Part shown: one piece after another, positions 3,301-59,301 of the stretch | How the letters are laid out: each line of letters begins with the position of its first letter | Numbering within the stretch: the stretch's first letter is position 1 | Source of the DNA: an uncultured bacterium | GTDB lineage: Bacteria; Spirochaetota; Spirochaetia; Treponematales; Rectinemataceae | Assembly (NCBI GenBank): GCA_963787185.1 | Contig: CAWBCC010000011.1 | Coordinates: 135,916 to 199,915 of the forward strand | DNA: 64,000 nucleotides | Reading direction: 5' to 3' | Notes under the pieces: generated by a model | What the model was told of the DNA's origin: nothing | The model's input: the letters and a program-made list of their open reading frames with translations, nothing else | Database searches by the model: none | Translations under genes and position numbers: made by a program

Positions 3301-4019
3301 ATGACGAGACCTCTGTCTCCCGTCGCGGCACCCCCTCCGGCTTGCCGCAATGTTCCGTCCAGGAAGACGCCCGTCCAATCGTCGAGATTGGCGCTCAGAG
3401 AGTCGCCGAAAAAGGTCTCGGTGGTCGTCCCGGACTGCCGCAGAAATCGGACGTGGCCTCGTGCGGTGACGGAGTTGCGAGCGCGATCGTAGGTGACTTC
3501 CTGCGCCTCGATGCGCTGGATCGCCCCGCTCGCCTCCTTGAGGGTGAGGACGACGCCCCCCGAGGCGCGAATTATGTCGCCTTCGCCGTTCTCGAGCGTG
3601 AAGTAGGAGGCCTGGTCGGCCCGTTCGATCGTGATGACCGTGCCTTTGCGCTCGGCCGCGGAGGGCGGCGGCTTTATCTTATAATGATCGTAGAGCCGCG
3701 AACGAATATCGGCTGCAGAGCCTGCGTCCGAGAGCCCGAGCGATCTGGCCCATGCGGCGAGCTCGTAGAAAGTGGCCGTGGATATGTCGAGCGGCAGCGT
3801 GGCCATGTATAGTTCATCGTCGGGCCCGGACGTCGATGCCGCCGGCACGGTCGGGGCCTCCGGCGCCGCCGGTGCGGTCGATGCCGAGGGGCTTGTCGAG
3901 GTTGCCGGCGCGGTCGGAGAAACCGCGGGCGATGCCGAGCTCCCGGAGTTCTGCCCGTGCAGCGCCGCTGCGAAGAGTATGCAAGAGAAGGAGATGCAGA
4001 CTACGCGGCGCCGAGGCAT
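396..4019 (-). CDS. LptD/OstA-like outer-membrane protein with signal peptide, SAP-like motif and a long low-complexity insert
   Basis: 1207-aa ORF. The N-terminal signal-like segment is MPRRRVVCISFSCILFAAALHG. An OstA-like region (VVLTLKEASGAIQRIEAQEVTYDRARNSVTARGHVRF) is followed by LPFFYYPGEE, typical of LptD C-terminal barrels. An Ala/Thr/Ser/Pro low-complexity block lies mid-protein. Confidence 0.55.
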   Translation of the reverse strand: MPRRRVVCISFSCILFAAALHGQNSGSSASPAVSPTAPATSTSPSASTAPAAPEAPTVPAASTSGPDDELYMATLPLDISTATFYELAAWARSLGLSDAGSAADIRSRLYDHYKIKPPPSAAERKGTVITIERADQASYFTLENGEGDIIRASGGVVLTLKEASGAIQRIEAQEVTYDRARNSVTARGHVRFLRQSGTTTETFFGDSLSANLDDWTGVFLDGTLRQAGGGAATGDRGLVMSAETMVRRSKNVLVFDKGVITSSQSADPHYSIRAGKVWILGDNEWAIADAVFSIGNVPVLWLPFFYYPGEEIVFHPVVGYRSREGEFVQTTTYLIGQKPQKEGTTGILKLSQEGQSGPMILKGLFLKRDDSAKAAAAASSNVLKVMADAYTGLGAFAGVQGSFPQEGLFKNIAFSAGLGFSRSLFLEDNGYYSPYDAAANYQSVWNGSRFLGLSLPFRYGLDSSASFTAGTLNASYDVPLYSDPYYQYDFMNRSEDMDWTRLFSSTPDLTTPPDILTGFNPKFDLNFSYRPSSLQPWIGSIDLTRFETSMSWLSKQTTTVTENATLYNVDPARQFFYPDVVRPYDAAISIKGNLYRYNGGVAAGTTSAAASGTTAATTATAATIATTATAANAANAGGAAPVPATGAVPAAPSNPSASPASGLQPREPWSTDAAPESGEGAAPGNSPGGASASSAASDNPDKLGDFISPARAPDIPAPSTADPWAASIDWGLTPSSYVEERYKSDAWGGPNDIDFSPLYSLVSYKLGATIDARAAYRQSLLTADLGLAWNEQDQYRPYLYDQGDYASGAAAYRVSDYQYRSRQLGASLLLGSQPFADDWLWSPTSLSYTLDATIYGLQFSQMSGANNDIPVYSQNYLGWNSNSITTNSATLDLAIKPWNAIQSLALTMTMPPTAESYGALLSLKAGLASLTMQDRAYRPSVGQTFSFDPLTSTVVLGAAPWPVLSDTFIYDFTLGQPQSNTSSLSWAGISVALASQNTQAYEYSGGSWIPYGDTGFRNTDLNIGINETLQTDKDRPTVWSLGLNTSLDQSILEFSNSTLTFGLTLGLKIRDILDLAFSIQSQNTAFWRYYPQLFPEVNDPDIGGADLWRRNIVQDLLDSLSVWNTAALQRSLFKLKTLSFKMLHDLEDWTVSLEASVSPILSTDMTNYILETSISFLVTWKDLSMVKSDVEYDSQGIPQGNPQTLTY

Positions 4020-4074
4020 GACTTTGGATACTACCTGTGCTCGGCTTCCTAGTAAAGTGAAAAGGCCCGTTATG

Positions 4075-6906
4075 CTAGACCAGGACCTCTTTGAGATACT
4101 TGCCGGTGTAGGACGCCTTCGCCTTGACGACCTGTTCGGGCCGACCCTGCGCGATGATCCGGCCTCCCCTGTCGCCGCCCTCGGGCCCGAGGTCGACGAT
4201 CCAGTCGGCCTGCTTTATCACATCGAGGTTGTGTTCGATCATGACGACGGAATTGCCCGTGTCGACGAGACGTTGGATGACTTCCATGAGCTGCTTGACG
4301 TCCGCGAAATGCAGACCGGTCGTCGGCTCGTCCAGGAAGTAGAGAGTCTTGCCCGTGCTTCGCTTCGAGAGTTCGAAGGCAAGCTTCACTCGCTGTGCCT
4401 CCCCCCCGGAAAGGGTGAGCGCGGACTGCCCCAGCTTGATGTAGCCGAGCCCGACGGACAATAGCGTGTTCATCTTGTGCGCGATGTGCGGGATATGCTC
4501 GAAGAAGTCGGCCGCCTCCTCGATCGTCATGTCGAGGACCTCCGCGATATTCCTGCCCTTGTATCGGACGTCGAGAGTGTCCGCATTGAAACGGCGCCCG
4601 TGGCAGACATCGCAGGTGATGTAGACATCGGGAAGGAAGTTCATTTCGATCTTGATGGTCCCGTCGCCCTGGCAGTTTTCGCAGCGGCCGCCCTTCACGT
4701 TGAAGGAGAACCTGCCCGGCTTCCAACCCCGCGCCTTGGACTCCGGCAGGGAGGAAAAGAGATCGCGGATCCCGGTGAATACCCCGACATAGGTCGCCGG
4801 GTTCGAACGCGGCGTGCGGCCGATGGGACTCTGGTCTATATTGATGATCTTGTCGATGGCCTCGAGTCCCTCGATCGAGCCGTAATCGCCTTCCTGCCAG
4901 GACGTGCCCATGACACGGTTCGAAATGACGGGATAGAGCAAATCCGAGAGCAGGGTCGACTTGCCCGATCCGGAGACGCCCGTGATGCAGGTAAACAGTC
5001 CCAGCTTGAGCTCGACGTCGATGCCCTTGAGATTGTGCTCGCGGCAGCCCTTGATGATTATGCTCTTTCCGTTCCCTTCGCGTCGTACGGCGGGTACTTC
5101 GATGCTCAGTTTTCCCGCGAGATACTGTCCCGTGATGCTCTTGCAGTTTTTCATGACTTCGGCCGGCGTTCCCTGCGCCACCACGTGGCCGCCGTGCACG
5201 CCGGCGCCCGGCCCCAGGTCGACGATCCAGTCGGCCGTGCGCAGCGTCTGTTCGTCGTGCTCCACGACGATGAGAGTGTTGCCGATGTCGCGCAGGAATA
5301 TGAGCGTGTCGATGAGGCGCTGGTTGTCGCGCTGGTGCAGGCCGATGGACGGCTCGTCGAGGATGTAGAGCACTCCCACGAGCGAGGAACCGATCTGAGT
5401 GGCGAGACGTATGCGCTGGGCCTCGCCTCCCGACAGGGTAGCTGCCTTGCGCTCGAGAGTCAGGTACTCGAGGCCGACGTTGCGCATGAAGTTGAGCCGC
5501 GCAGTGATCTCCTTGAGTATCTGCTTGGCGATCTGCCGCTCGGTATCGCTCAACGTTATGCTCTCGAAAAAGGCCAGAGACTCCTCCACCGACTTCGCCG
5601 ACAGATCGTGCACGTTGGTTCCGTCGATCGTGACCGCCAGGGCTTCCGGCCTGAGGCGCCGCCCCCCGCAGGCCTCGCAGCTCTTTTCGCTCATGAAACG
5701 CTCGAGCCACTGCTTGATGCCTTCGCTCTGCGTCTCGAGATAGCGACGCTTGAGGTCGGCGAGTATGCCGGGAAAGCGGGACTCGTATTCGAAGCGGCCG
5801 GTGCCCTCCCTGTTCTCGTACTTGATCTTCACGGCTTCGTCCGTGCCGCGCAGGATCGCGTCGATCACCCGTTTGGGAAGATCCTTGAACGGCGTATCGA
5901 GGCTGAACTTGAAGTGCCGGGCGAGAGACTCGAATCGACTCCTGTTCCAGGCGGAGTCCGGATTGTAGGGAATGCAGCCGCCCTCGTTGAACGACAGGGA
6001 AGGATCCGGGATGACGAGGTCGGGATCGAACTCGAGCTTGATGCCGAGGCCCGAGCAGACGGGACAGGCGCCCTGGGGAGCATTGAACGAAAAAAGTCGC
6101 GGCTCCATCTCGGGCAGGGATATGCCGCATTCCGGGCAGGCGCCCTTCTGGCTGAAGAACTCTTCCGTAGTCTTCCCATCCTCCTCTCGGAGCACGACTA
6201 CGCTTCCTTCCGCGATCTCGAGCGAGGTCTCCACGGATTCGGCAAGCCTGGTACGCGCATCGTTCGTGAGCCTGATTCGATCCACGACGATCTCGATCGA
6301 GTGCTTGCGTTGCTTATCGAGCTTGAAATCGCCGGCGCCGTCCGAAGGCAATTCGCGCATATCCCCGTCGACACGGGCACGGGCGAAACCCTGCTTGGAT
6401 GCGTCCTCGAGTATCTTCTTGTGTTCGCCTTTCTGCGCCCGAACGACCGGAGCCAGAATCTGAAGCTTGATTCCCGGAGACCAGGAGAGGATGGTGTCCA
6501 GTATCTGGTCGATGCCCTGCTCGCGGATCTCGCGGCCGCAGCGCGGGCAATGCGGCACGCCGACGCGCGCGTAAAGCAGGCGGTAGTAGTCGTAGATCTC
6601 GGTGACGGTGCCGACCGTGGAACGAGGATTGCGATGCGTGGTCTTCTGCTCGATCGATATGGCGGGGGACAGACCTTCGATGTAGTCCACGTCGGGCTTG
6701 TCCATGCGGCCCAGGAACTGGCGGGCGTACGCCGACAGGGATTCGACGTAGCGCCGCTGCCCCTCGGCGAAGAGAGTATCGAAGGCGAGCGAGCTCTTTC
6801 CCGAGCCGGAAAGGCCGGATATGACTATGAGCTTGTCGCGCGGCAGCTCGAGGTCGATGTTTTTGAGATTGTGTTCACGCGCACCTTTTATTATGAGCTT
6901 ATCCAT
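4075..6906 (-). CDS. uvrA: excinuclease ABC subunit A
   Basis: 943-aa ORF starting [66 protein letters not shown]. It has two ABC ATPase modules (second Walker [11 protein letters not shown]) and zinc-finger cysteines, with full-length UvrA architecture. Confidence 0.97.
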
Positions 6907-7565: not shown

Positions 7566-9377
7566 CTATTCGAGCACGGCGTAGATCCGCCGCACGCCGG
7601 CGCTGGAGGACTGCTCCTTCTGTATCCGGAAGCGCCCCAGGACTCCCGTGCGCTCGACATGGGGCCCGCCGCAGACTTCCTTGGAAAAATCGCCTATCGT
7701 GTAGACCTTGACCGTCTCCTCGTACTTCTCGCCGAAAAGTGCGATCGCTCCGGAAGCCTTGGCTTCCTCGAGTTTCATCATGGCCATGGTGACGGGGAGG
7801 TCGCGGCGTATCTGCTCGTTGACGAGTTCCTCTACGCGCTTGAGCTCCCCGGGGCTCATGGGCGAGCCGTGGGAAAAGTCGAAGCGGAGCCGTTCGGCGG
7901 TGATGTTCGAACCTTTCTGGCCGACATGGTCGCCGAGCACTATGCGCAGGGCCTTGTGGAGAAGGTGGGTGGCGGTATGGTAGCGGGTCGCGATCTCGCC
8001 GTGGTCGGCCAGGCCTCCCTTGAAGACCTGCTCGCTGCCCGCGCGCGAAAGTTCCTGGTGCTTCTTGTAGGCCTCGTCGAATTCTCCGCGATCGACGCTC
8101 ATGCCGCTCTCCGCCGCCAGCTCCTCGGTCAGCTCGATGGGGAATCCATAGGTATCGTATAGCTTGAAGGCCAGTCTGCCCGACATGACCCTCTGAGGAT
8201 TTTTGAGCAGATTCGGGAGCATCTTCTCGAACTCGTGCTCGCCCTTCTGCAATGTCTCCAGGAACTTGGACTCCTCGTTCGCGAGCTCCTGGGCGATCCG
8301 CGCGCGGTTTTCCGCGAGCTCGGGGTAGGGTTCCGCGTAATTCTCGATCACGCGCTCCGCGATGCCGGGCAGGAAGCTGCCCTCGATGCCCAGCTTCCGG
8401 CCGTGGCGCACGGCCCGGCGGATGATGCGCCGCAGGACATAGCCCGCACCTATGTTCGAGGGGCTGACGGCCTTGGGGTCGCCCAGGATGAAGGTCGCCG
8501 TCCGAGCGTGGTCGGCGATGATCCGGAAAGACTTGCCGAGCTCGGCGTCGGCTGCGTACGGCAGGGCCGTCTTCCCCGCCCCTCGCCCCGTCGCCTCGGA
8601 TATCGCCTCGAGAACCGTCGTGAATGCTTCCGTGTCGTAGACGGAGCTTTTGCCCTGGAGCATCGCGACCGTGCGCTCGATGCCCATGCCGGTGTCCACG
8701 CAGGGGTGTTCGAGCGGGAGATACCTGCCTTCGCTCGTCTTGTTGTACTGCATGAAGACGTCGTTCCAGACCTCGAAGTACTTGCCGCAGCTGCAGCCGG
8801 GACGGCAGTCGGGCCCGCATTTCGGCTTGTCCGTGTCGACGAACATCTCCGAATCGGGACCGCAGGGGCCGGTTTCGCCGGCCGGGCCCCACCAATTGTC
8901 TTCCCGGGGCAGGAAGTGGATACGCGCCTCGGGGATGCCGAGTTTTTTCCAGATGCGGGCCGAGTCTCCATCGCGGGGAATGCCCTCTTCGCCCGCGAAG
9001 ACCGTCACCGAGAGTTTGTCGACGGGAATGCCGAGATACTTCGTGTCCGTGAGAAACTCGAATGACCAGGCCAGCGCCTCTTCCTTGAAGTAGTCGCCCA
9101 GAGACCAATTACCGAGCATTTCGAAGAAGGTGAGATGGCTCGGATCGCCGACTGCCTCGATGTCGCCGGTGCGGATGCACTTCTGGTAGTCGGTGAGCCG
9201 CTTCCCCGCCGGGTGCGGTTCGCCGAGCAGATAGGGGACGAGGGGGTGCATGCCCGCGGTGGTGAATAGCACGGTGGGATCGTTTTCGGGGATGAGAGAC
9301 TTGCCGGAAATCTCGACGTGGCCCTTGGAAACGAAGAAATCTATATACTTTCTACGCAGTTCATTGATCGTGACCAT
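7566..9377 (-). CDS. alaS: alanine--tRNA ligase, short (603 aa) form
   Basis: N-terminus MVTINELRRKYIDFFVSKGHVEISGKSLIPENDPTVLFTTAGMHPLVPYLLG is class-II AlaRS. The C-terminal part carries editing-domain motifs (HTATHLLHKALR ... CGGPHV). It is much shorter than the roughly 875-aa canonical enzyme. Confidence 0.93.
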   Translation of the reverse strand: MVTINELRRKYIDFFVSKGHVEISGKSLIPENDPTVLFTTAGMHPLVPYLLGEPHPAGKRLTDYQKCIRTGDIEAVGDPSHLTFFEMLGNWSLGDYFKEEALAWSFEFLTDTKYLGIPVDKLSVTVFAGEEGIPRDGDSARIWKKLGIPEARIHFLPREDNWWGPAGETGPCGPDSEMFVDTDKPKCGPDCRPGCSCGKYFEVWNDVFMQYNKTSEGRYLPLEHPCVDTGMGIERTVAMLQGKSSVYDTEAFTTVLEAISEATGRGAGKTALPYAADAELGKSFRIIADHARTATFILGDPKAVSPSNIGAGYVLRRIIRRAVRHGRKLGIEGSFLPGIAERVIENYAEPYPELAENRARIAQELANEESKFLETLQKGEHEFEKMLPNLLKNPQRVMSGRLAFKLYDTYGFPIELTEELAAESGMSVDRGEFDEAYKKHQELSRAGSEQVFKGGLADHGEIATRYHTATHLLHKALRIVLGDHVGQKGSNITAERLRFDFSHGSPMSPGELKRVEELVNEQIRRDLPVTMAMMKLEEAKASGAIALFGEKYEETVKVYTIGDFSKEVCGGPHVERTGVLGRFRIQKEQSSSAGVRRIYAVLE

Positions 9378-9439
9378 GGCCGCGAGTGTAAAGGAGGGGC
9401 CCGAAGACCGTCAAGGACGAGGGCGGCGACCCATCTCGG

Positions 9440-10738
9440 CTATTCGACGTCGGGATGGTTCTTGCGAATCTCTTCTATTCGAGGAAGTATCTCGAAGAAG
9501 GCCGTCACGATCTCGGGATCGAACTTCGTGCCGCTCATGTTGCGGATCTCCTCGTAGACTTTGTCGGAGCTCCAGGCTTCCTTATAGACGCGCTTCGAAA
9601 CGAGCGCATCGAACACGTCGGCCACGGCGACGATCCGACCGGGCAGGGGAATCTCCTCGCCTTTGAGCCGTCGGGGCTTCCCCTCGACGACTTCGAGCGC
9701 GGGCGCGTCCCAGACTTCGACGTCGCGCGAGACGCCCTCGACCGCGATGGTCCGGACTTCCGGGCTGGCTCGCGCGTAATCGACCCTGCCGGGATAACCC
9801 GTCCCGTCCCAGCTTTCATGGTGAGTGAGGGTGATTTCCGCCGCCATTCGATCGAAATCAGACTCGGGATTCTTGAAGAGCCGCGCCCCGCAATAGGTGT
9901 GCGCCTGCATGACCTGATATTCCGGCTCGGTGAATCGCGCGGCCTTCTTCAGAATGAGGTCGGAGATCGCCACCTTGCCGATGTCGTGGAGCATGGCGGC
10001 CATTTTGAGGGTATCCTTCGTCCTATCGCGTTCCTTTTCCCCGATGCCGTGCCGGAAGGCCCAGCGCTCGTATATTTCGGCGGCATAGCCCGAGACTCGG
10101 TACACGTGCGCGGCCGTCTCGTGAGAGTCGCGCAACTCGGCCGTTTGGATCATCCTCAGGACGAGGGCACGCGTCATGTATGCCCGCATGAGGGCGTTCG
10201 TGGCGCTGGATGCGAAATGGCCGACTATCGCCTCGTCGTCCTTGGTGAAGGGCACGACCTTGTTCTTCTCTCCCACTGCGTTAATGACCTGGATGACGCC
10301 TAGGAGGCTGCCGGAGCTCGCGATCAGAGGCACGGCCAAAATCGACGTGGTCTTGTAGTCGTTCGCCTTGTCGAAGGAAGGGCTGAACTTGTAGGGCCTG
10401 TCCGTAGGCATGGCGTATGCGTCGTCGATACGTACGACGACCTGATTCTTGGCCGAATAGCCCGCCACCCGGGATTCGTCGATCGGGATTCTCTGGTTGG
10501 AATATGGAAGCTTTTCACCGGGGGGAAGTCGATTCTCGAGGGTGGCATTTTGGCTGTACTTGAACACCAGCTGATCGCCTTCCTTCTCGTAAATAGTTCC
10601 CGCGTCGGCGTTTACTACATGCCGTGCCTCGAGTAGAATGCGCTCGAGGAGGATATCCGCATCCTGTATCTTGCTCAGCTCGGAATCGATCTGGAAAATT
10701 ATGTCCCGGAAATCGCGCTTGCTTTTCTTGGCCGACAT
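9440..10738 (-). CDS. GAF domain / HD-GYP domain protein (putative c-di-GMP phosphodiesterase)
   Basis: 432 aa with an N-terminal GAF-like region. The C-terminal part has HDIGKVAISD and HHESWDGTGYP motifs characteristic of HD-GYP. Confidence 0.85.
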   Translation of the reverse strand: MSAKKSKRDFRDIIFQIDSELSKIQDADILLERILLEARHVVNADAGTIYEKEGDQLVFKYSQNATLENRLPPGEKLPYSNQRIPIDESRVAGYSAKNQVVVRIDDAYAMPTDRPYKFSPSFDKANDYKTTSILAVPLIASSGSLLGVIQVINAVGEKNKVVPFTKDDEAIVGHFASSATNALMRAYMTRALVLRMIQTAELRDSHETAAHVYRVSGYAAEIYERWAFRHGIGEKERDRTKDTLKMAAMLHDIGKVAISDLILKKAARFTEPEYQVMQAHTYCGARLFKNPESDFDRMAAEITLTHHESWDGTGYPGRVDYARASPEVRTIAVEGVSRDVEVWDAPALEVVEGKPRRLKGEEIPLPGRIVAVADVFDALVSKRVYKEAWSSDKVYEEIRNMSGTKFDPEIVTAFFEILPRIEEIRKNHPDVE

Positions 10739-20600: not shown

Positions 20601-21585
20601 TGCGCCCAAGATTCCCGAAGGCATCGCGCCGGCCGCGAAAGACTTTTACGGCTTCGTCAGAGGCATGCTTCGCCGAGAGGCCGCGGAAGAGGGGCTTCCC
20701 GGCGACCCCGAGCGGGTAGCGCCGGGCGGCGACCCCGAGCGGGTAGCGCCGGGCGGCGACCCCGAGCGGGTAGCGCCGGGCGGCGACCCCGAGCGGGTAG
20801 CGCCGGGCGGCGACCCCGAGCGGGTAGCGCCGGGCGGCGACCCCGACGCGAGCGCCGTTGCGGCGGCTTGCGAGCGCCTCGCGGCCGGACTCGCGGCCGT
20901 TTCGGCTATCGCGTCTTCAAAAAGCCGACCTGCTTCGGAATCGGAAGTGAACGATCAGACCGTTTTCGAAGAGCTCGTCCGACCGGGCCGGCCGCAGCTC
21001 GCGCTGTGCTATCTGGTGCTCGACGCTCTCCGTCCCCTCGTGGGGATGTCCGGCTCGGGCGAGGAGGCGCGGCGTCTGACGGACAGACTCTGCCTGGATC
21101 GAAAGCTTCGCGAGGCCCTTCGCGGGACCGGCATGCACGGCGACGAGGTCTTCCACGGCATGGCATTGGCGAAGGCTTTCCTGGCGCGATCGGGCGGGCC
21201 GGTCGAGATTCGTAGCCCGAAGCTCGCGAAGGGTTCCGCGGAGAAACCGGTCGCGCAGTGCGTCGAGGCGCTGATCGGGGCGGGAGGCGACGAAGAGCTG
21301 GGCGCCCTTCTCGGCGTCAACATATTCGAGGGCGTCACCTGGTTCAACAAGGAGCGCTTCGAAGAGGCGGCCCGCTTTGCCGCCCTGATCGATGCGCTGA
21401 CCTCGCCCTGGCCTCCGGCTTCCCGCGAGCCTGGCCTCGCTGAACGCTCAGACACGGCGGGCACGGCCGCCCGTCGATACATCGCGGCCGCGGAGACCGC
21501 GGGCTATCGCCTCGATCGTCTCGTCGAGCTCGCCGCTGCCGCAAAGGAATCTGAATCTCTTCCGAAAAGAAAGAAGGAAAGATGA
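17672..21585 (+). CDS. alpha-amylase-family (GH13-like) large protein, interrupted by an apparent 1-nt frameshift (possible pseudogene or sequencing error)
   Basis: ATG at 17672 is preceded by GGGGAGG. The catalytic-domain motifs are FNALWLIGLWERS and LAADMVPNHTG. The first frame becomes Arg/Pro-rich after ...ELLDWAGG and stops at 20719. The frame of track ORF 20275..21585 becomes protein-like exactly from LVRPEAAATGGTGKRPRAKAK... onward. The switch point is the G6 run 20524-20529, and one extra G joins the two frames. Confidence 0.75.
20701..20846 (+). repeat. 27-bp tandem repeat x 5.4, in frame, encoding (GDPERVAPG)n
   Basis: GGCGACCCCGAGCGGGTAGCGCCGGGC is repeated perfectly five times from 20701, followed by a partial sixth copy. 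The unit contains TAG in the alternative frame, which is what terminates the shifted upstream frame at 20719. Confidence 0.95.
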
Positions 21586-43861: not shown

Positions 43862-44284
43862 TCAACCCTCGCAGTTCTGCCGTAGAAGATACTTATCCTC
43901 TAAAGTTTCCTTCCAAAGCGATAGATAGTTCCTCTGAAATCCCGGAATGGAAGCCTTGTAATACCGGACATTTCGATGTTCCTCGGACCTTTCCTTGCAA
44001 TATGGAACGAATGAAAAATCGTCATTCGCGACATGGACAACGGTAAAAACCGTTTCATCGTCTTTCAGATATTCCAATATCGTATTCGCCCCAGTCACTT
44101 CCTCGACGTACTTTAGAGTAGACTTCGCGGATATCAGAGCTGATTTGGAAAAGAAGAAAAAATTATGGAAAGTGGGAACGGACTCGATCATGATTCGCAA
44201 ATTTTCCAACACTTCCCTATTTTCGCCATTCTGCATTCTTTCGATCTTATGGTTCAGGATCTCCAGGGCAGCCTCTTTCGTCAT
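43862..44284 (-). CDS. hypothetical protein (140 aa) in an AT-rich islet
   Basis: It is the only sizeable ORF in the 43.8-44.3 kb segment, which has clearly lower G+C than the flanks by eye. Its composition is Lys/Glu/Asn-rich (MTKEAALEILNHKIERMQNGENREVLENL...). I recognised no family. Confidence 0.55.
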   Translation of the reverse strand: MTKEAALEILNHKIERMQNGENREVLENLRIMIESVPTFHNFFFFSKSALISAKSTLKYVEEVTGANTILEYLKDDETVFTVVHVANDDFSFVPYCKERSEEHRNVRYYKASIPGFQRNYLSLWKETLEDKYLLRQNCEG

Positions 44285-44368
44285 AAATGCCCCCGTAAAC
44301 GAAGCTTACGCATAATTTCATCATACTTTGGCCGATCGTCAAGGACTCCAATCGACATACCGCCGCTT

Positions 44369-45179
44369 AGCGTTTCACGCACATGGCGATTCCCATCCGC
44401 CGCCGTCGCGCAGGTCGCCGGAGGCGACCCCTACAACCACTTCCCTACAGCCCGGCGGCGGGATGGCGCTTCCGAATTTGCCATTCGCATTTCAGGGCTG
44501 TTCCACGCACATCGCTATGCCCATCCCGCCGCCGTCGCGCAGGTCGCCGGAGGCGACCCCTACAACCACTTCCCTACAGCCCGGCGGCGGGATGGCGCTT
44601 CCGAATTTGCCATTCGCATTTCAGGGCTGTTCCACGCACATCGCTATGCCCATCCCGCCGCCGTCGCGCAGGTCGCCGGAGGCGACCCCTACAACCACTT
44701 CCCTACAGCCCGGCGGCGGGATGGCGCTTCCGAATTTGCCATTCGCATTTCAGGGCTGTTCCACGCACATCGCTATGCCCATCCCGCCGCCGTCGCGCAG
44801 GTCGCCGGAGGCGACCCCTACAACCACTTCCCTACAGCCCGGCGGCGGGATGGCGCTTCCGAATTTGCCATTCGCATTTCAGGGCTGTTCCACGCACATC
44901 GCTATGCCCATCCCGCCGCCGTCGCGCAGGTCGCCGGAGGCGACCCCTACAACCACTTCCCTACAGCCCGGCGGCGGGATGGCGCTTCCGAATTTGCCAT
45001 TCGCATTTCAGGGCTGTTCCACGCACATCGCTATGCCCATCCCGCCGCCGTCGCGCAGGTCGCCGGAGGCGACCCCTACAACCACTTCCCTACAGCCCGA
45101 CGGCGGGATGGCGCTTCCGAATTTGCCATTCGCATTTCAGGGCTGTTCCACGCACATCGCTATGCCCATCCCGCCGCCG
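44369..45179. repeat. 129-bp tandem array, about 6.3 copies, containing the thiolase 3' terminus and its downstream flank
   Basis: Unit starts (CCATCCCGCC...) lie at 44393 (128 bp, one C fewer), 44521, 44650, 44779, 44908, 45037 and 45166, a period of 129 bp. Units 2-5 look identical and unit 6 has one G>A change (CCCGACGG). A degenerate partial copy spans 44369-44392. The last 43 nt of the array are the real end of the thiolase CDS. Confidence 0.95.
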
Positions 45180-46318
45180 ATGCACAGCGTCGCAAGGCCT
45201 TTCTTCGCCTTTCGCCGCTTCATCTCGTGCAGCAGGGTGACGAGGATACGCGCCCCCGAGGCGCCTATCGGGTGGCCGATGGCGATGGCGCCGCCGTTCA
45301 CATTGACCCTCGCCATGTCGAGACCGAGCTCCCTGGCGACGGCGAGCGCCTGAGCGGCGAAGGCTTCGTTGGCCTCGATGAGGTCGACATCGTCGAGCCG
45401 CCAGCCGGCGCGTCCCAGCGCGAGACGTACGGCCTCGACGGGGCCCATGCCCATGATCGAGGGGTCGACGCCGCGCCAGGCGTAGGACGCGATGCGCGCC
45501 ATCGGCTCCAGTCCGCGCCGCCCGAGACTGTCTTCGTCGAGCACGAGGAGGGCCGCGGCGCCGTCGTTGATGCCGGACGCGTTGCCCGCCGTCACCGTAC
45601 CCTCGCTCCTGAATGCGCCCTTGAGCTTGGCGAGAGACTCGGGAGTCACGCCCGCCCGGGGAAACTCGTCCCGGTCGAAGGGCACGGGCTCGCCCTTACG
45701 CTGAGGAACCGCGACGGGAACGATCTCATCGTCGAATCGCCCCTCGGCTTGGGCCCGCTCGGTCCTGTTCTGGGAAAGAGCGGCAAAGGCATCCTGGTCG
45801 GCCCGGCTGATCCCGTACTTCACGGCGATGTTCTCGGCGGTGATGCCCATGTGATAATCGTTGAAAATGTCCCAGAGTCCGTCGCTGATCATGGAGTCCA
45901 CGAGACTGCCGTCGCCCATGCGGTAGCCGGTGCGGGCCTGTCTGAGGATGTAAGGCGCCTGACTCATGCTCTCCACGCCGCCGGCTATCACCGCCGCGGC
46001 ATCGCCTGCCTTGACCGCCTGGGCCGCGGCCGCGACGGCGCGCAGCCCCGAACCGCAAACCATGTTGACGGTCTGCGCAGTCTTTTCGACGGGGATGCCC
46101 GACTTGACCAGGACCTGCCTTGCCATGTTTTGTCCCAGCCCCGACTGGAGAACGCAGCCGAGCGTCAGCTCGTCGATATCCCCCGGCTCGATGCCCGTGC
46201 GTTCCAACAGGGCGCGGACTACGGTCCTGCCGAGCTCGACCGCGCCCACCGAGGCCAGTGCTCCGCCGAAGCTGCCCACGGCCGTGCGAATTCCATCCGC
46301 TATGTACACTTCCTTCAT
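45137..46318 (-). CDS. thl: acetyl-CoA C-acetyltransferase (thiolase)
   Basis: 393 aa. [31 protein letters not shown] (active-site Cys) and [20 protein letters not shown] are present. The C-terminal end is [18 protein letters not shown]. Confidence 0.95.
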
Positions 46319-47757: not shown

Positions 47758-48076
47758 CCAAGGGGAGGCACAGAGAAGAGAGAAAAAAGCTCGGTGAACG
47801 AGCGCGCGGAGATTCCAACCGCCATTCGCTCCCTCACCCTTCCCATCTTCCTCCCGTTACTCCTCTTCTCTCTCCCTCTTCCCTCCGCGCCTCTGTGGCC
47901 AATCCCTTCTCCCCTATCGGAACCCTCAAAGAATCAGCCACGGAGACACAGAGAAGAGAAAAAGTTCGATGAGCGAGCGCCGAGACTTCAACAGCATATC
48001 CCCTCCCCCTCATCATCCTCCCACTACTACTCCTCTTCTCTCTCCCTCTTCCCTCCGTGCCTCTGTGGCCAATCCC
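47758..48076. repeat. two tandem copies (A1, A2) of the purine/pyrimidine-asymmetric inverted-repeat element
   Basis: A1 spans about 47762-47899 and A2 spans 47937-48069. Both end ...CCTCTTCTCTCTCCCTCTTCCCTCCG(C/T)GCCTCTGTGGCCAATCCC, with a 170-bp period between the CTCTGTGGCC ends. Linker ...CAAAGAATCAGCCAC joins them. The block lies between atoD and the kamE stop. Confidence 0.9.
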
Positions 48077-48859: not shown

Positions 48860-48986
48860 GCCACAGATGCACCGAGACGGAGAGGGGATAAGAGAGAAAA
48901 GGAACCTGCCCGTCGAGTTCCGACATACGATCCTCTCCCTCTGTGCCTCCGTGGCTTCTCCCCAATTCCCTCTGTGCCTCCGTGGC
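48860..48986. repeat. one inverted copy (B) of the same element, with duplicated terminal motif
   Basis: AATCCAAGCCACAGATGCACCGAGACGGAGAGGGG...CCCTCTGTGCCTCCGTGGC...CCCTCTGTGCCTCCGTGGCC. Its reverse complement aligns with the orientation seen at 57859-57992. A small hairpin GGGGGA-GACT-TCCCCC (49004-49019) lies between it and the kamD stop. Confidence 0.8.
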
Positions 48987-54747: not shown

Positions 54748-55072
54748 AGGCATGGAGGCACGGAGAAGAGAGAAAAGAAATTGAGGAAAGAAGAAAAGCG
54801 GTAATTCCAATTGTGACCCGCCCCCCCGCCCTTTGCCCTCATCCGGCACCATCCTCACTCCTCTCCTCTCTCTCCCTTCCCTCCGTGCCTCTGTGGCATA
54901 TCTCTTCTCTTTCTTACAGGCCCTTCAAAGAATCGAGCCACAGAGGAAGAAGGCAGAAGAAGTCCGATGGGAGCGAGAGCCGAGATTCCAGTTGCAAGCC
55001 GCCCCTTCACCTTATCTTCCTCCCCATTATTCCTCTTCCCTCTTCCTCTTTCCCCCTCCGTGCCCCTGTGGC
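54748..55072. repeat. two tandem copies (C1, C2) of the same element
   Basis: C1 spans 54748-54897 (GAGGCATGGAGGCACGGAGAAGAGAGAAAAG...CTCCCTTCCCTCCGTGCCTCTGTGGC). The linker is ...CAAAGAATCGA. C2 spans 54937-55072 (GCCACAGAGGAAGAAGGCAGAAGAAG...GAGCGAGAGCCGAGATTCCAGTT...CCCCCTCCGTGCCCCTGTGGC). The block lies between the kamA start and the kce stop. Confidence 0.9.
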
Positions 55073-55907: not shown

Positions 55908-55931
55908 AATCGCTCCATCGGAGATGAATAT

Positions 55932-56430
55932 GCCACAGAGACACAGGGCACGGAGAAGAAGCCGAGAGCAGGTTTCGAATCACAGTACGATCCTTTTCAA
56001 TCCTTTACGAAGCGTTTCCAGCCCAAAATTCAATATTAGACCTACCTTCCATCCGCCAAGCTTCAGATAGGTGAGCACCTGCGCATCAAAGACGGGATGC
56101 ATGAGTTGAACCGACTTCAACTCCAGAACTATCGCGTTCTCCACGACGAAATCCGCGCGAAAGCTGCCGTTCAACTGTTGACCCTTGTAGAGGACAGGCA
56201 ATTGAATCTGACGCTGGAAGGCAAGTTCCGCTTCGGCCATTTCAATCGTCATTGCCTCTTCGTATACGGATTCGAGAAGACCCGGCCCAAGCTCCGTATG
56301 AACAGTGAGGGCACAACCGATGATGCGCTCAGTCAGTTCTCGGTGTGGGTATCGTTCTACAGCATCCACTTTTTGCATATTCCTCTTCTCCTCGACGATA
56401 TCTCTTACTCTGTGCCTCCGTGCCTCTCTT
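55932..56430 (-). mobile_element. composite unit: GxxExxY gene bracketed by the left (purine-rich) and right (pyrimidine-rich) halves of the intergenic repeat element
   Basis: The left flank 55932-55982 reads GCCACAGAGACACAGGGCACGGAGAAGAAGCCGAGAGCAGGTTTCGAATCAC. Compare the consensus GCCACGGAGGCACAGAGGAAGAA...GAGCCGAGATTCCAATTAC. The right flank 56379-56430 reads ATTCCTCTTCTCCTCGACGATATCTCTTACTCTGTGCCTCCGTGCCTCTCTTCC and contains an exact 13-mer CCTCCGTGCCTCT of the consensus right end. Mobility itself is inferred, not shown. Confidence 0.45.
55980..56378 (-). CDS. GxxExxY protein (PD-(D/E)XK nuclease-like, PDDEXK_3 type)
   Basis: 132 aa. ...IIGCALTVHTELGPGLLESVYEEAMTIEM...LPVLYKGQQL...FRADFVVENAIVLELKSV... 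carries the G-x-x-E-x-x-Y signature (GLLESVY) and a D...E-x-K-like core (ADFVV...LELK). G+C is lower than in neighbouring genes by eye. The SD GAGGAGAAGAGG is supplied by the repeat half. Confidence 0.8.
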   Translation of the reverse strand: MQKVDAVERYPHRELTERIIGCALTVHTELGPGLLESVYEEAMTIEMAEAELAFQRQIQLPVLYKGQQLNGSFRADFVVENAIVLELKSVQLMHPVFDAQVLTYLKLGGWKVGLILNFGLETLRKGLKRIVL

Positions 56431-56444
56431 CCTGATTGCCTTCT

Positions 56445-57731: not shown

Positions 57732-57780
57732 ACGGCCTCCTACGTTAAGTCAAAATATCAGCTCTCATATCATCTTCACG

Positions 57781-58163
57781 CTACTCCTCTTCTCTCCCTC
57801 TCCCCTCCGTGCCTCTGTGGCATTCTCTTCTCCTCCCCAACGCCCCTCGAAGAATCAAGCCACGGAGGCACAGAGGAAGAAAGGAAAAGAAGCTTGGTGG
57901 AGCGAGAGCCGAGATTCCAATTACTCTCCCCCCCCATCCTCCCCATCACCCCTCTTCTCTCTCCCTCCCTCTTCCCTCCGTGCCTCTGTGGCATTCTCTC
58001 CGCCTATTTCAGGACCGTTGAAGAATCAAGCCACGGAGGCACAGAGGAAGAAGGGAGAAGAAGCTTGGTGGAGCGAGAGCCGAGATTCCAATTACTCTCC
58101 CCCCCCATCCTCCCCATCACCCCTCTTCTCTCTCCCTCCCTCTCCCCTCCGTGCCTCTGTGAC
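57781..58163. repeat. 2.3 tandem copies (D1 partial, D2, D3) of the same element
   Basis: D1 is the right end only (57781-57821). D2 spans 57859-57992 and D3 spans 58030-58163, both 134 bp and differing at 4 positions. The period is 171 bp. The conserved linker is ...GAAGAATCAAGCCAC. The block lies between the aminotransferase start and the kdd stop. Confidence 0.95.
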
Positions 58164-58175
58164 CTATCCCTTTCC

Positions 58176-59215
58176 TCACTTCACGTACTGCGTCTCGAAG
58201 AGCTTGCGCAGGCCGGGGTTCTCGCGCAGCTCCCAGAGAGTGATCTCCGCGTGATCCCTGGTGTAGCCGTTGCCGATGATCATGGTCACGTCCTTGCCGA
58301 TGCCTTCGGCCCCGAGAGCGGCGCGCGTGAAACTCGTGGCCATCGAGAAGAAGTAGACCATGCCCTCGTCCTTCACGGGAAGAATCGAGGCCATCTCCGA
58401 GCCCTGGATGTTGACGCAGTTGATGCAGAGGTCGACCTCCATCCCGCCGTTGACCGCGAGCACGGCGTCGAGAACCTCGGTGGGCCTGGTGGCGTCGGCG
58501 GTGACGATCTCGTGGGCGAGCTTGAGCCGGGAAAGGGTCTCGCGCGAACGTTCGGAGTGGATGACGGCGATGACGCGGCCGGTGGGGCCTACGCGCTTCA
58601 TGGCCTCGTAGCAGCATAGAATGCCGGACTTGCCGCCCGCTCCGAGAACGAGGACCGACATGCCCGGCTTCACGAGCTTGGCCGTCTGGGCGGGGGCCCC
58701 CGCGACGTCGAGGGCGGCGAGGGCGAGGCCCTCGTCCATGTCGGAGGGAAGTTTGGCGTAAATGCCGGACTCGAAGAGGATGGCCTGGGCCTCCACCTCG
58801 AGTCGGTCGATTTCGGAGTGAACCTTGAGTATCCTGCCGATCTTGAGGGGGGTGAGCAGAGAGATACGAGGCTCGCGATCCTGTCGCCGACCTCGAGGTC
58901 GCGGCCGGCGAGGGCCGAGCCGATCTTGGCCACGGTGCCGATGAGCATGCCGCCCGAGCCGGTGACGGGGTTCTGCTGCTTACCGCGGGCGGCGACGATG
59001 CCCGCGATGATGGACTTGATCTTTTCCACGTCGCCCGCAGCCTCTTCTTCGATCTGAGTGAAGGAAGCGGAGTCTATGTTGAGCGCGGTGACGTCGAGGA
59101 GGATCTCGTTGTCGTAGACGATCGACATGTCGTTGTTGAGCTTCTGCGCCGTCTGCGGCATTGCGCCCGCCGGCTCGACGACTCGGTGCGTACCATACTT
59201 GTTGCCCATCGGCAT
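58176..59215 (-). CDS. kdd: L-erythro-3,5-diaminohexanoate dehydrogenase, interrupted by an apparent 1-nt frameshift (possible pseudogene or sequencing error)
   Basis: The N-terminal frame (MPMGNKYGTHRVVEPAGAMPQTAQKLNNDMSIVYDNEILLDVTALNIDSASFTQ...GDRIASLVSL) turns Ser/Pro/Arg-rich after codons over 58847-58870. The second frame reads ...LTPLKIGRILKVHSEIDRLEVEAQAILFESG...GAGGKSGILC... to the stop at 58176. The joint is at the G6 (coding-strand C6) run 58847-58852, and one extra C restores a roughly 346-aa protein. Confidence 0.75.
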
Positions 59216-59301
59216 GGCGATCCTCCTTCGAGCTCGTGCTGCGCTGCTGCGGCGAGTTGCGCGGACTTCGAGGCCCGCCTCTGCGCTGTACTGATTGTAC
59301 T

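Follow-up and report, generated by a model that had tools for sequence, protein, structure and literature searches.

A GxxExxY nuclease-family gene in a spirochaete lysine operon is framed by inverted octamer arrays shared with gene-less hairpin repeats

We analyzed a 64,000-nt stretch of DNA from an uncultured bacterium of the Rectinemataceae (Spirochaetota; GenBank assembly GCA_963787185.1, contig CAWBCC010000011.1, positions 135,916 to 199,915), hereafter the window, in which a small gene of the GxxExxY family lies within a lysine-fermentation operon. Our analysis confirmed that this gene is placed between two inverted arrays of 8-nt units (the arms) and that the same arrays form the ends of gene-less repeats elsewhere in the operon. 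A cognate relationship between gene and repeat is well supported. The best reading is a pair resembling the repetitive extragenic palindromes (REPs) and their REP-associated tyrosine transposases (RAYTs), built here on a PD-(D/E)XK nuclease. In this reading, which we regard as evenly poised, the gene and its two arrays constitute one compact cassette of ~500 nt that shares a family with the gene-less hairpin repeats. That the GxxExxY protein acts enzymatically on the arms is what we consider most likely, with middling confidence.

The operon occupies the minus strand of the window and comprises kdd, a class-III aminotransferase gene, kce (BKACE), kamA, kamD/E, a CoA-transferase gene and a thiolase gene, in this order. 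The 132-aa GxxExxY gene sits in the 537 nt that separate the aminotransferase stop (56445) from the kce start (55907); coordinates of all features are collected in Table 1. Its product matches TIGR04256 (GxxExxY) with an E-value of 1e-41 and 141.7 bits (cut-off 35) and PF13366 (PDDEXK_3) with an E-value of 7e-40 and 136.5 bits (cut-off 22), both over the full length, and PF13366 is its sole Pfam match. The G+C content of the gene is 50% (55% at third codon positions, GC3) versus 65-67% (GC3 87-91%) in the neighboring genes.

On the forward strand, the arm on the low-coordinate flank of the gene reads GCCACAGAGACACAGGGCACGGAG and the arm on the high-coordinate flank reads CTCTGTGCCTCCGTGCCTCTCTTCC. 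The two are inverted arrays of three CACRGAG-N units each, a unit being the heptamer CACRGAG plus one spacer base. The 3' arm begins 24 bases past the stop codon, and the two arms pair with each other in the minimum-free-energy fold. The enzyme gene is therefore framed, in the manner of REP/RAYT loci, by inverted copies of a dispersed repeat (55932-55955 and 56408-56432).

The dispersal of this repeat is evident from its end motif. With up to 3 mismatches allowed, the 18-mer CCTCCGTGCCTCTGTGGC has 13 matches compared with 0.1 expected, and all of them are intergenic and confined to 47.7-58.2 kb of the window. The gene-less copies comprise six full ones (~134 nt), one diverged and one partial; they have the same arms at their ends as the cassette, and several are paired in tandem with a 171-nt period. 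We scored the flanks of the GxxExxY gene against a profile built from the six full copies, using dinucleotide shuffles as control (n = 2000). Of the 2000 shuffles, 28 scored as well as the left flank and 8 as well as the right flank, and the alignment of profile to flanks was confined to the arms (model positions 3-31 and 113-136). In the whole-window nhmmer search the E-values of the flanks were weak (0.88 and 2.6). The resemblance of the interior (GCCGAGA...TTCCAAT) to the 134-nt repeat was not above chance in the profile test, and homology between the cassette interior and the gene-less copies was rejected since the whole-profile nhmmer search of the window matches the arms alone. Taken together, the profile scores against shuffles indicate that the termini are shared beyond chance and that the interiors are not homologous.

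An initial annotation, made from the sequence of the window alone, had anticipated much of this arrangement. It described the 132-aa GxxExxY gene in its 537-nt gap, in agreement with the coordinates and family matches above, and a G+C content below that of the neighbors, which is borne out. It also noted an exact 13-mer of the consensus end in the high-coordinate flank, which we located at 56415-56427 (CCTCCGTGCCTCT), and at least eight copies without cargo, of which we found eight in the lysine operon. Its proposal that the gene sits inside a split copy of the repeat holds only in part: the gene does lie between shared termini, but with unrelated interiors the arrangement is not literally a split copy.

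The 37-nt spacers between tandem units (57822-57858, 57993-58029, 47900-47936 and 54898-54934) are themselves conserved (...TCAAAGAATCA) and carry the inverted repeat further (GAAGAAT/ATTCTCTTC), so that all 171 nt may constitute the true repeat unit, one that could adopt alternative hairpins. An Rfam scan of the window returned sub-threshold miRNA-hairpin matches only.

The association of gene and arms extends well beyond this operon. We collected 80 loci from many phyla out of a species-representative genome collection, picked by GxxExxY protein alignment alone and containing 83 GxxExxY genes. When words in the 150-nt flanks of these genes were counted without bias, CACAGAG and CACGGAG came out as the top upstream heptamers and CTCTGTG and CTCCGTG as the top downstream heptamers. 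In the typical cassette the 5' side consists of (TTC)ACC-[CACRGAG-N]x2-4 followed by 10-40 nt and the ATG, and the 3' side of the stop codon, 2-40 nt and [N-CTCYGTG]x2-4-GGT(GAA), with a total span of 400-530 nt across loci. An ungapped inverted match across the gene with a score of at least 12 was found for 38/83 GxxExxY genes compared with 1/81 control open reading frames (ORFs) of the same loci (p 1.6e-11). When arms are defined more generally as at least two tandem C[AG]CN[AG]A[GT] units, both arms are present in 62/83 genes and one or more in 75/83, and the 326 kb of loci contain 215 arms versus 4 in shuffles.

The shift toward AT is likewise family-wide, with GxxExxY genes at 46% G+C versus 56% in their flanks. 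The same cassette anatomy is found on a replicon of cultured Bernardetia, where the annotation is merely "GxxExxY protein". Homologues are rare on plasmids (8 of 72,556 records). Many predicted GxxExxY ORFs extend into the 5' arm. No Rfam match reached the gathering threshold in twenty cassette loci.

The heptamer itself varies between loci, with CACAGAG, CACGGAG, CGCAGAG, CACGAAG, CACAAAG, CGCAAAG, CACCAAG, CACTAAG, CACGAAT and CACAGAT all represented. The 5' and 3' arms are nevertheless of concordant type in 59/62 loci, whereas permutations gave 28 on average and 39 at most, and arms not linked to the GxxExxY gene of their locus match its cassette in type in 46/70 cases (20 expected). One Bacteroidota locus (L066) contains two cassettes 1.5 kb apart (1998-2387 and 3874-4248) of types CACAGAG and CACGAAT. 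With two types in one genome, arm type belongs to the cassette and not simply to the genome. The 205 mismatches between paired arms comprise 58 sense-strand G.U, 64 antisense G.U and 83 transversions, with no excess of sense-strand G.U, and the arms differ mainly at the degenerate R and the spacer positions. This pattern resembles an iterated DNA motif more than a compensated stem in a single RNA, and on sequence grounds the arms look like DNA-level terminal repeats or binding sites rather than an RNA stem.

Comparison with related operons shows how the cassette behaves at a single site. The closest homologues that we looked up (59.5-66.4% identical) all lie between the aminotransferase gene and kce in lysine operons of other Spirochaetia. 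One relative (L089/L090, kce 88% identical) has an empty site, in which TAG is followed by GGGAAGCGCG and then ATG, without gene or arms. Another (L093) has an intact gene and a perfect 25-nt terminal inverted repeat (ACCGCAGAGGCGCAGAGACGCAGAG / CTCTGCGTCTCTGCGCCTCTGCGGT), and two samples, L091 and L092, have a disrupted gene (43-aa and 111-aa fragments) and an expanded 5' arm. This arm (L091 3317-3420, L092 3299-3420) is enlarged by a duplicated GGGATATTGTCTAxGCGCAGAGG block and differs between the two by one GCGCAGAGG/GCGCTGAGG unit, in what looks like a slippage-type change of copy number.

The cassettes do not follow the host genes, which group the window with L089 and L091 on one side and L093 with a further relative, L274, on the other. 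Host genes of L093 and L274 have 93.5% amino-acid identity and the cassette proteins 63.6%, with arms of CGC and CAC type, respectively. Conversely, L093 and L276 have 78% identity in host genes and 79.5% in the cassette protein, and both have near-identical arms of CGC type. The empty site and the swapped cassettes indicate that gene and arms are gained, lost and replaced as one unit; exact insertion boundaries are not definable from the empty-site comparison because the spacers are too diverged. The gene-less elements in the kdd-aminotransferase and kce-kamA gaps are of CGC type in L093 and of CAC type in L274, with unalignable interiors. This switch indicates that turnover of the gene-less repeats keeps pace with that of the cassette at the site, whose octamer type they follow as a cognate pair predicts.

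The cognate-pair idea of the initial annotation thus survived all three comparisons that could have undone it: the flanks of the gene outscore shuffled controls, GxxExxY genes elsewhere are flanked by a repeat of the same kind (both arms in 62/83 versus 1/81 control ORFs), and gene and repeat were not inserted independently, since L089 is without both and other relatives carry differing gene-plus-arm units.

The protein has the features of a nuclease. Across 30 homologues, residues G33, E36, Y39, D76, E86, K88, Q100 and Y104 do not vary, and the window protein keeps the E36 / D76 / E86-x-K88 nuclease set together with Q100-xxx-Y104. RecB-family nucleases typically carry a QxxxY motif. The AlphaFold2 model (predicted local distance difference test score, pLDDT, 93) has an alpha-beta nuclease fold. 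Its top Foldseek neighbors, Cas4 SSO0001, lambda exonuclease and RecE, are weak matches (E 2e-3, template-modeling score 0.5) of generic PD-(D/E)XK kind. A sequence search of the PDB found no relative, and the PADLOC anti-phage defence profiles and PHROGs gave no match. The protein family is large, with about 19,600 representatives of PF13366/TIGR04256 at 50% identity, and the best-scoring of these (P0241-P0251) are proteins of 260-295 aa with two tandem GxxExxY domains. Such natural two-domain fusions suggest a dimeric unit that would fit the two-fold symmetric arms. A 2012 survey of PD-(D/E)XK proteins listed PF13366 as being of unknown function and subject to multiple transfers, and our full-text literature search on GxxExxY, PF13366, TIGR04256 and the arm sequence turned up no account of the gene-repeat association.

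From this combination of features we infer binding, cleavage and copying or mobilization of the elements by the GxxExxY protein. The protein would be a small RecB/Cas4-like PD-(D/E)XK DNA nuclease, probably dimeric on the two-fold symmetric arms, which would recognize, and cut at, the octamer arrays that flank its own gene and those that end the gene-less copies. Repair of the break from another copy, by gene conversion or homing between arms, would then spread and homogenize the elements; alternatively, they may spread by excision and re-insertion at hairpins. Such copying and homogenization would explain why the arms of one genome share the resident octamer type and why cassettes are swapped at one site. 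We put forward only tentatively the broader possibility that hairpin elements with ends of 7-8-nt units form a pan-bacterial superfamily to which GxxExxY proteins are dedicated as nucleases, each paralogue reading its own octamer variant (CACAGAG, CGCAGAG, CACGAAG and others) and driving the copying of elements with matching arms.

Several observations weigh against the pairing of nuclease and repeat. Arms are far commoner without the gene: the exact 25-mer arm, mostly gene-less, was found in 59 IMG/VR stretches and at least 120 metagenome stretches, most of which (among the matches listed) are hairpins with 2-250-nt loops, and the ~1.2 Mb of 25-mer-selected viral and metagenome stretches listed hold 4 GxxExxY ORFs. 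The arms of a phage contig from IMG/VR (L107) frame unrelated small ORFs (820-1290, 3740-4460 and 9140-9610). The gene-less copies did not take their interiors from the cassette, the 134-nt repeat sharing its termini alone, and protein identity tracks arm type weakly (54.5% versus 52.1%, p ~0.002). No target-site duplication was found: direct repeats beside the inverted-repeat ends of 124 elements were near expectation. Exact look-ups of four GxxExxY proteins placed each in a single genomic context, and nothing points to the gene-bearing form having recently transposed to multiple sites. Gene conversion between hairpins could, moreover, also homogenize the arms with no role for the protein.

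Two contigs with other cargo show further detail. The 5' arm in L107 directly abuts the start codon (CACAGAG then ATG), and arms of CAC and CGC type are mixed on this contig. An Acidobacteria contig (L051, 717-1181) has a 154-aa ORF between octamer arms that is without Pfam or PHROG match and could represent another type of cargo.

Among described elements, the ORF-bearing intervening sequence (IVS) of 23S rRNA comes closest in anatomy. The Coxiella IVS measures 428 nt, its 28-bp terminal inverted-repeat stem is cut by RNase III, its loop holds an S23p ORF of ~120 aa, and three tandem GACAGAT heptamers, variable in number by strain, precede the start codon (PMC4990558). If our cassette were an RNA element of this type, its arms would form a stem in the transcript that is cut by RNase III, and the insert would be excised or insulated and tolerated in operons; the GxxExxY gene would be a passenger of the loop like S23p, the gene-less copies would be ORF-less IVS-like hairpins, and some other factor would spread them. 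This explanation is unlikely in our judgment, although it stands best among the alternatives. The likeness of stem, loop ORF and variable tandem heptamers speaks for it (PMC4990558), and the octamer number varies between L091 and L092 as the heptamers do in Coxiella. So do the fold of the gene-less unit (Table 1), the pairing of the cassette arms in the minimum-free-energy fold, and the L107 arms that frame other ORFs. The elements also lie between co-directional genes, the upstream neighbor being co-directional at 55/66 loci, which is modestly above the figure for any bacterial gene and carries little weight.

The arm mismatches, however, show no excess of sense-strand G.U over A.C (58 versus 64) and include 83 transversions, and the variation falls at degenerate motif positions instead of compensated pairs. 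A random passenger would not explain why 75-90% of one nuclease family lies within such arms, and the two cassettes of L066 keep distinct arm types. The points in common with the IVS of Coxiella and Leptospira are a length of ~430 nt, terminal inverted repeats around an ORF of ~120 aa, tandem 7-8-nt repeats of variable number just before the start codon, and the existence of short ORF-less versions. The IVS lies in helix 25 or 45 of the rRNA and encodes the four-helix bundle S23p (PF05635), whereas the cassette described here occupies an intergenic spacer of a protein operon with no rRNA nearby, encodes a PF13366 nuclease fold, and lacks a sense-strand pairing bias in its arms. No PF05635 ORF was found between arms in the viral, metagenome and genome loci scanned, samples that are small or biased.

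Alternatively, the arms could be ordinary regulatory or terminator-like hairpins, or operators of an autoregulating GxxExxY protein with an unrelated cellular role, their uniformity arising from gene conversion and slippage alone. The stability of cassettes at a single site, the lack of a target-site duplication, the shifts of unit number by slippage and the plenty of arms without the gene would all agree with this. We nevertheless find it improbable: gene and arms are present or absent together and are replaced as a unit between hosts that are ~93% identical, the tree of the cassettes conflicts with that of the host genes, the composition is AT-shifted throughout the family, and arms occur in phage contigs. 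Invariant catalytic residues would, in addition, be needless for a mere DNA binder. A fortuitous likeness between purine- and pyrimidine-rich stretches of low complexity, to which the weak nhmmer E-values of the flanks and the unaligned interiors might point, is countered by the shuffle controls and the 13 occurrences of the 18-mer and effectively refuted by the same arms around GxxExxY genes in dozens of phyla.

The preferred reading of a nuclease paired with its repeat has its nearest parallel in RAYTs with their REPs and the hairpins that REPs form (REPINs). In both systems a single enzyme gene lies between inverted copies of an intergenic hairpin repeat, of which many further copies are scattered without the enzyme; the gene resides stably at one site, unlike a multi-copy insertion sequence; and the sequence of the repeat varies together with the resident gene. 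The cassette is not a member of the REP/RAYT group because its enzyme, of ~125 aa, has a PD-(D/E)XK fold, probably RecB/Cas4-like, and not that of an HUH/Y1 (IS200/IS605 TnpA-like) transposase. Its repeats are tandem 8-nt units, 2-4 per arm, whereas a REP is a single palindrome with a GTAG head, and the cassette is exchanged horizontally at one site and distributed over many phyla. The initial annotation's comparison with REP/RAYT accordingly stands for geometry, and falls short in that the enzyme is not of HUH fold and the termini alone are shared.

Miniature inverted-repeat transposable elements and their autonomous partners offer a second comparison. There, too, gene-less copies share only terminal inverted repeats with the gene-bearing form, and presence or absence of the insertion differs among relatives. 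Iterated short motifs near the ends recall the transposase-binding repeats of Ac/Ds or En/Spm. The elements described here differ in having no target-site duplication, no DDE, HUH, serine or tyrosine recombinase, and no identical multi-site copies of the gene-bearing form for the four proteins looked up. Homing endonuclease genes, free-standing or intron-borne, include the PD-(D/E)XK enzyme I-Ssp6803I. They resemble the cassette as small selfish nuclease genes of AT-shifted composition with empty and occupied alleles, replaced as a unit at the same site in relatives, but they are without framing octamer arrays and without a swarm of gene-less derivatives at non-homologous sites.

Table 1. Positions of the GxxExxY gene, its arms and the gene-less repeats in the window.
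Feature	Position	Strand	Remark
GxxExxY / PDDEXK_3 gene, 132 aa	55980..56378	minus	inside aminotransferase-kce gap
Cassette 5' arm, gene sense GGAAGAGAGGCACGGAGGCACAGAG	56408..56432	minus	three octamer units, outermost degenerate
Purine-rich leader, Shine-Dalgarno-like GAGGAGAAGAGG	56379..56407	minus	between 5' arm and ATG
Cassette 3' arm, gene sense CTCCGTGCCCTGTGTCTCTGTGGC	55932..55955	minus	three octamer units, one with 1-nt deletion
Gene-less hairpin repeat c1	47762..47899	minus	5' arm degenerate
Gene-less hairpin repeat c2	47937..48069	minus	full copy
Diverged gene-less copy c3	48860..48986	minus	pyrimidine arm duplicated
Gene-less hairpin repeat c4	54750..54897	minus	kce-kamA gap
Gene-less hairpin repeat c5	54935..55072	minus	kce-kamA gap
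Partial gene-less copy c6	57779..57821	minus	right end only
Gene-less hairpin repeat c7, 134 nt	57859..57992	minus	RNA fold -71 kcal/mol, z -5.3
Gene-less hairpin repeat c8	58030..58163	minus	in tandem with c7, 171-nt period

Other features of the window were noted in passing. The window is 99.99% identical to GCA_052139715.1. Relative to that assembly, kdd (58176-59216, minus strand) has a 1-base deletion in a CTCTCTC run at ~58857 (L001 position 7521) that splits its ORF in the window; the remaining 18-kb overlap is identical. A 129-nt tandem repeat of at least seven copies, four of them identical, occupies 44268-45341, its unit consisting of the last ~13 codons of the thiolase gene plus ~90 nt downstream; it may reflect either genuine tandem duplication or an error of assembly. 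Positions 20673-20873 hold six copies of a 27-nt tandem repeat (GGCGACCCCGAGCGGGTAGCGCCGGGC).

The recurrence of the gene-plus-arms unit in many phyla points to a selfish DNA element that is apparently undescribed. For PF13366/TIGR04256, a large family of unknown function, our results provide a first candidate substrate in the octamer arrays found on both sides of three quarters of its genes, and the octamer types offer natural specificity variants of the family. They also define a widespread class of intergenic hairpin repeats, present in many phyla and in phage contigs and outside the Rfam families; we found no paper on these repeats. On the practical side, octamer-arm repeats break assemblies and misdirect start-codon calls. 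If the nuclease acts on the arms, the pair would be a second and mechanistically different enzyme-repeat partnership of the RAYT/REPIN kind, and possibly a key to how rRNA intervening sequences arise. Should the superfamily reading prove true, these elements would represent a new transposon-like class based on a RecB/Cas4-type nuclease, one that might explain the origin and spread of the rRNA intervening sequences.

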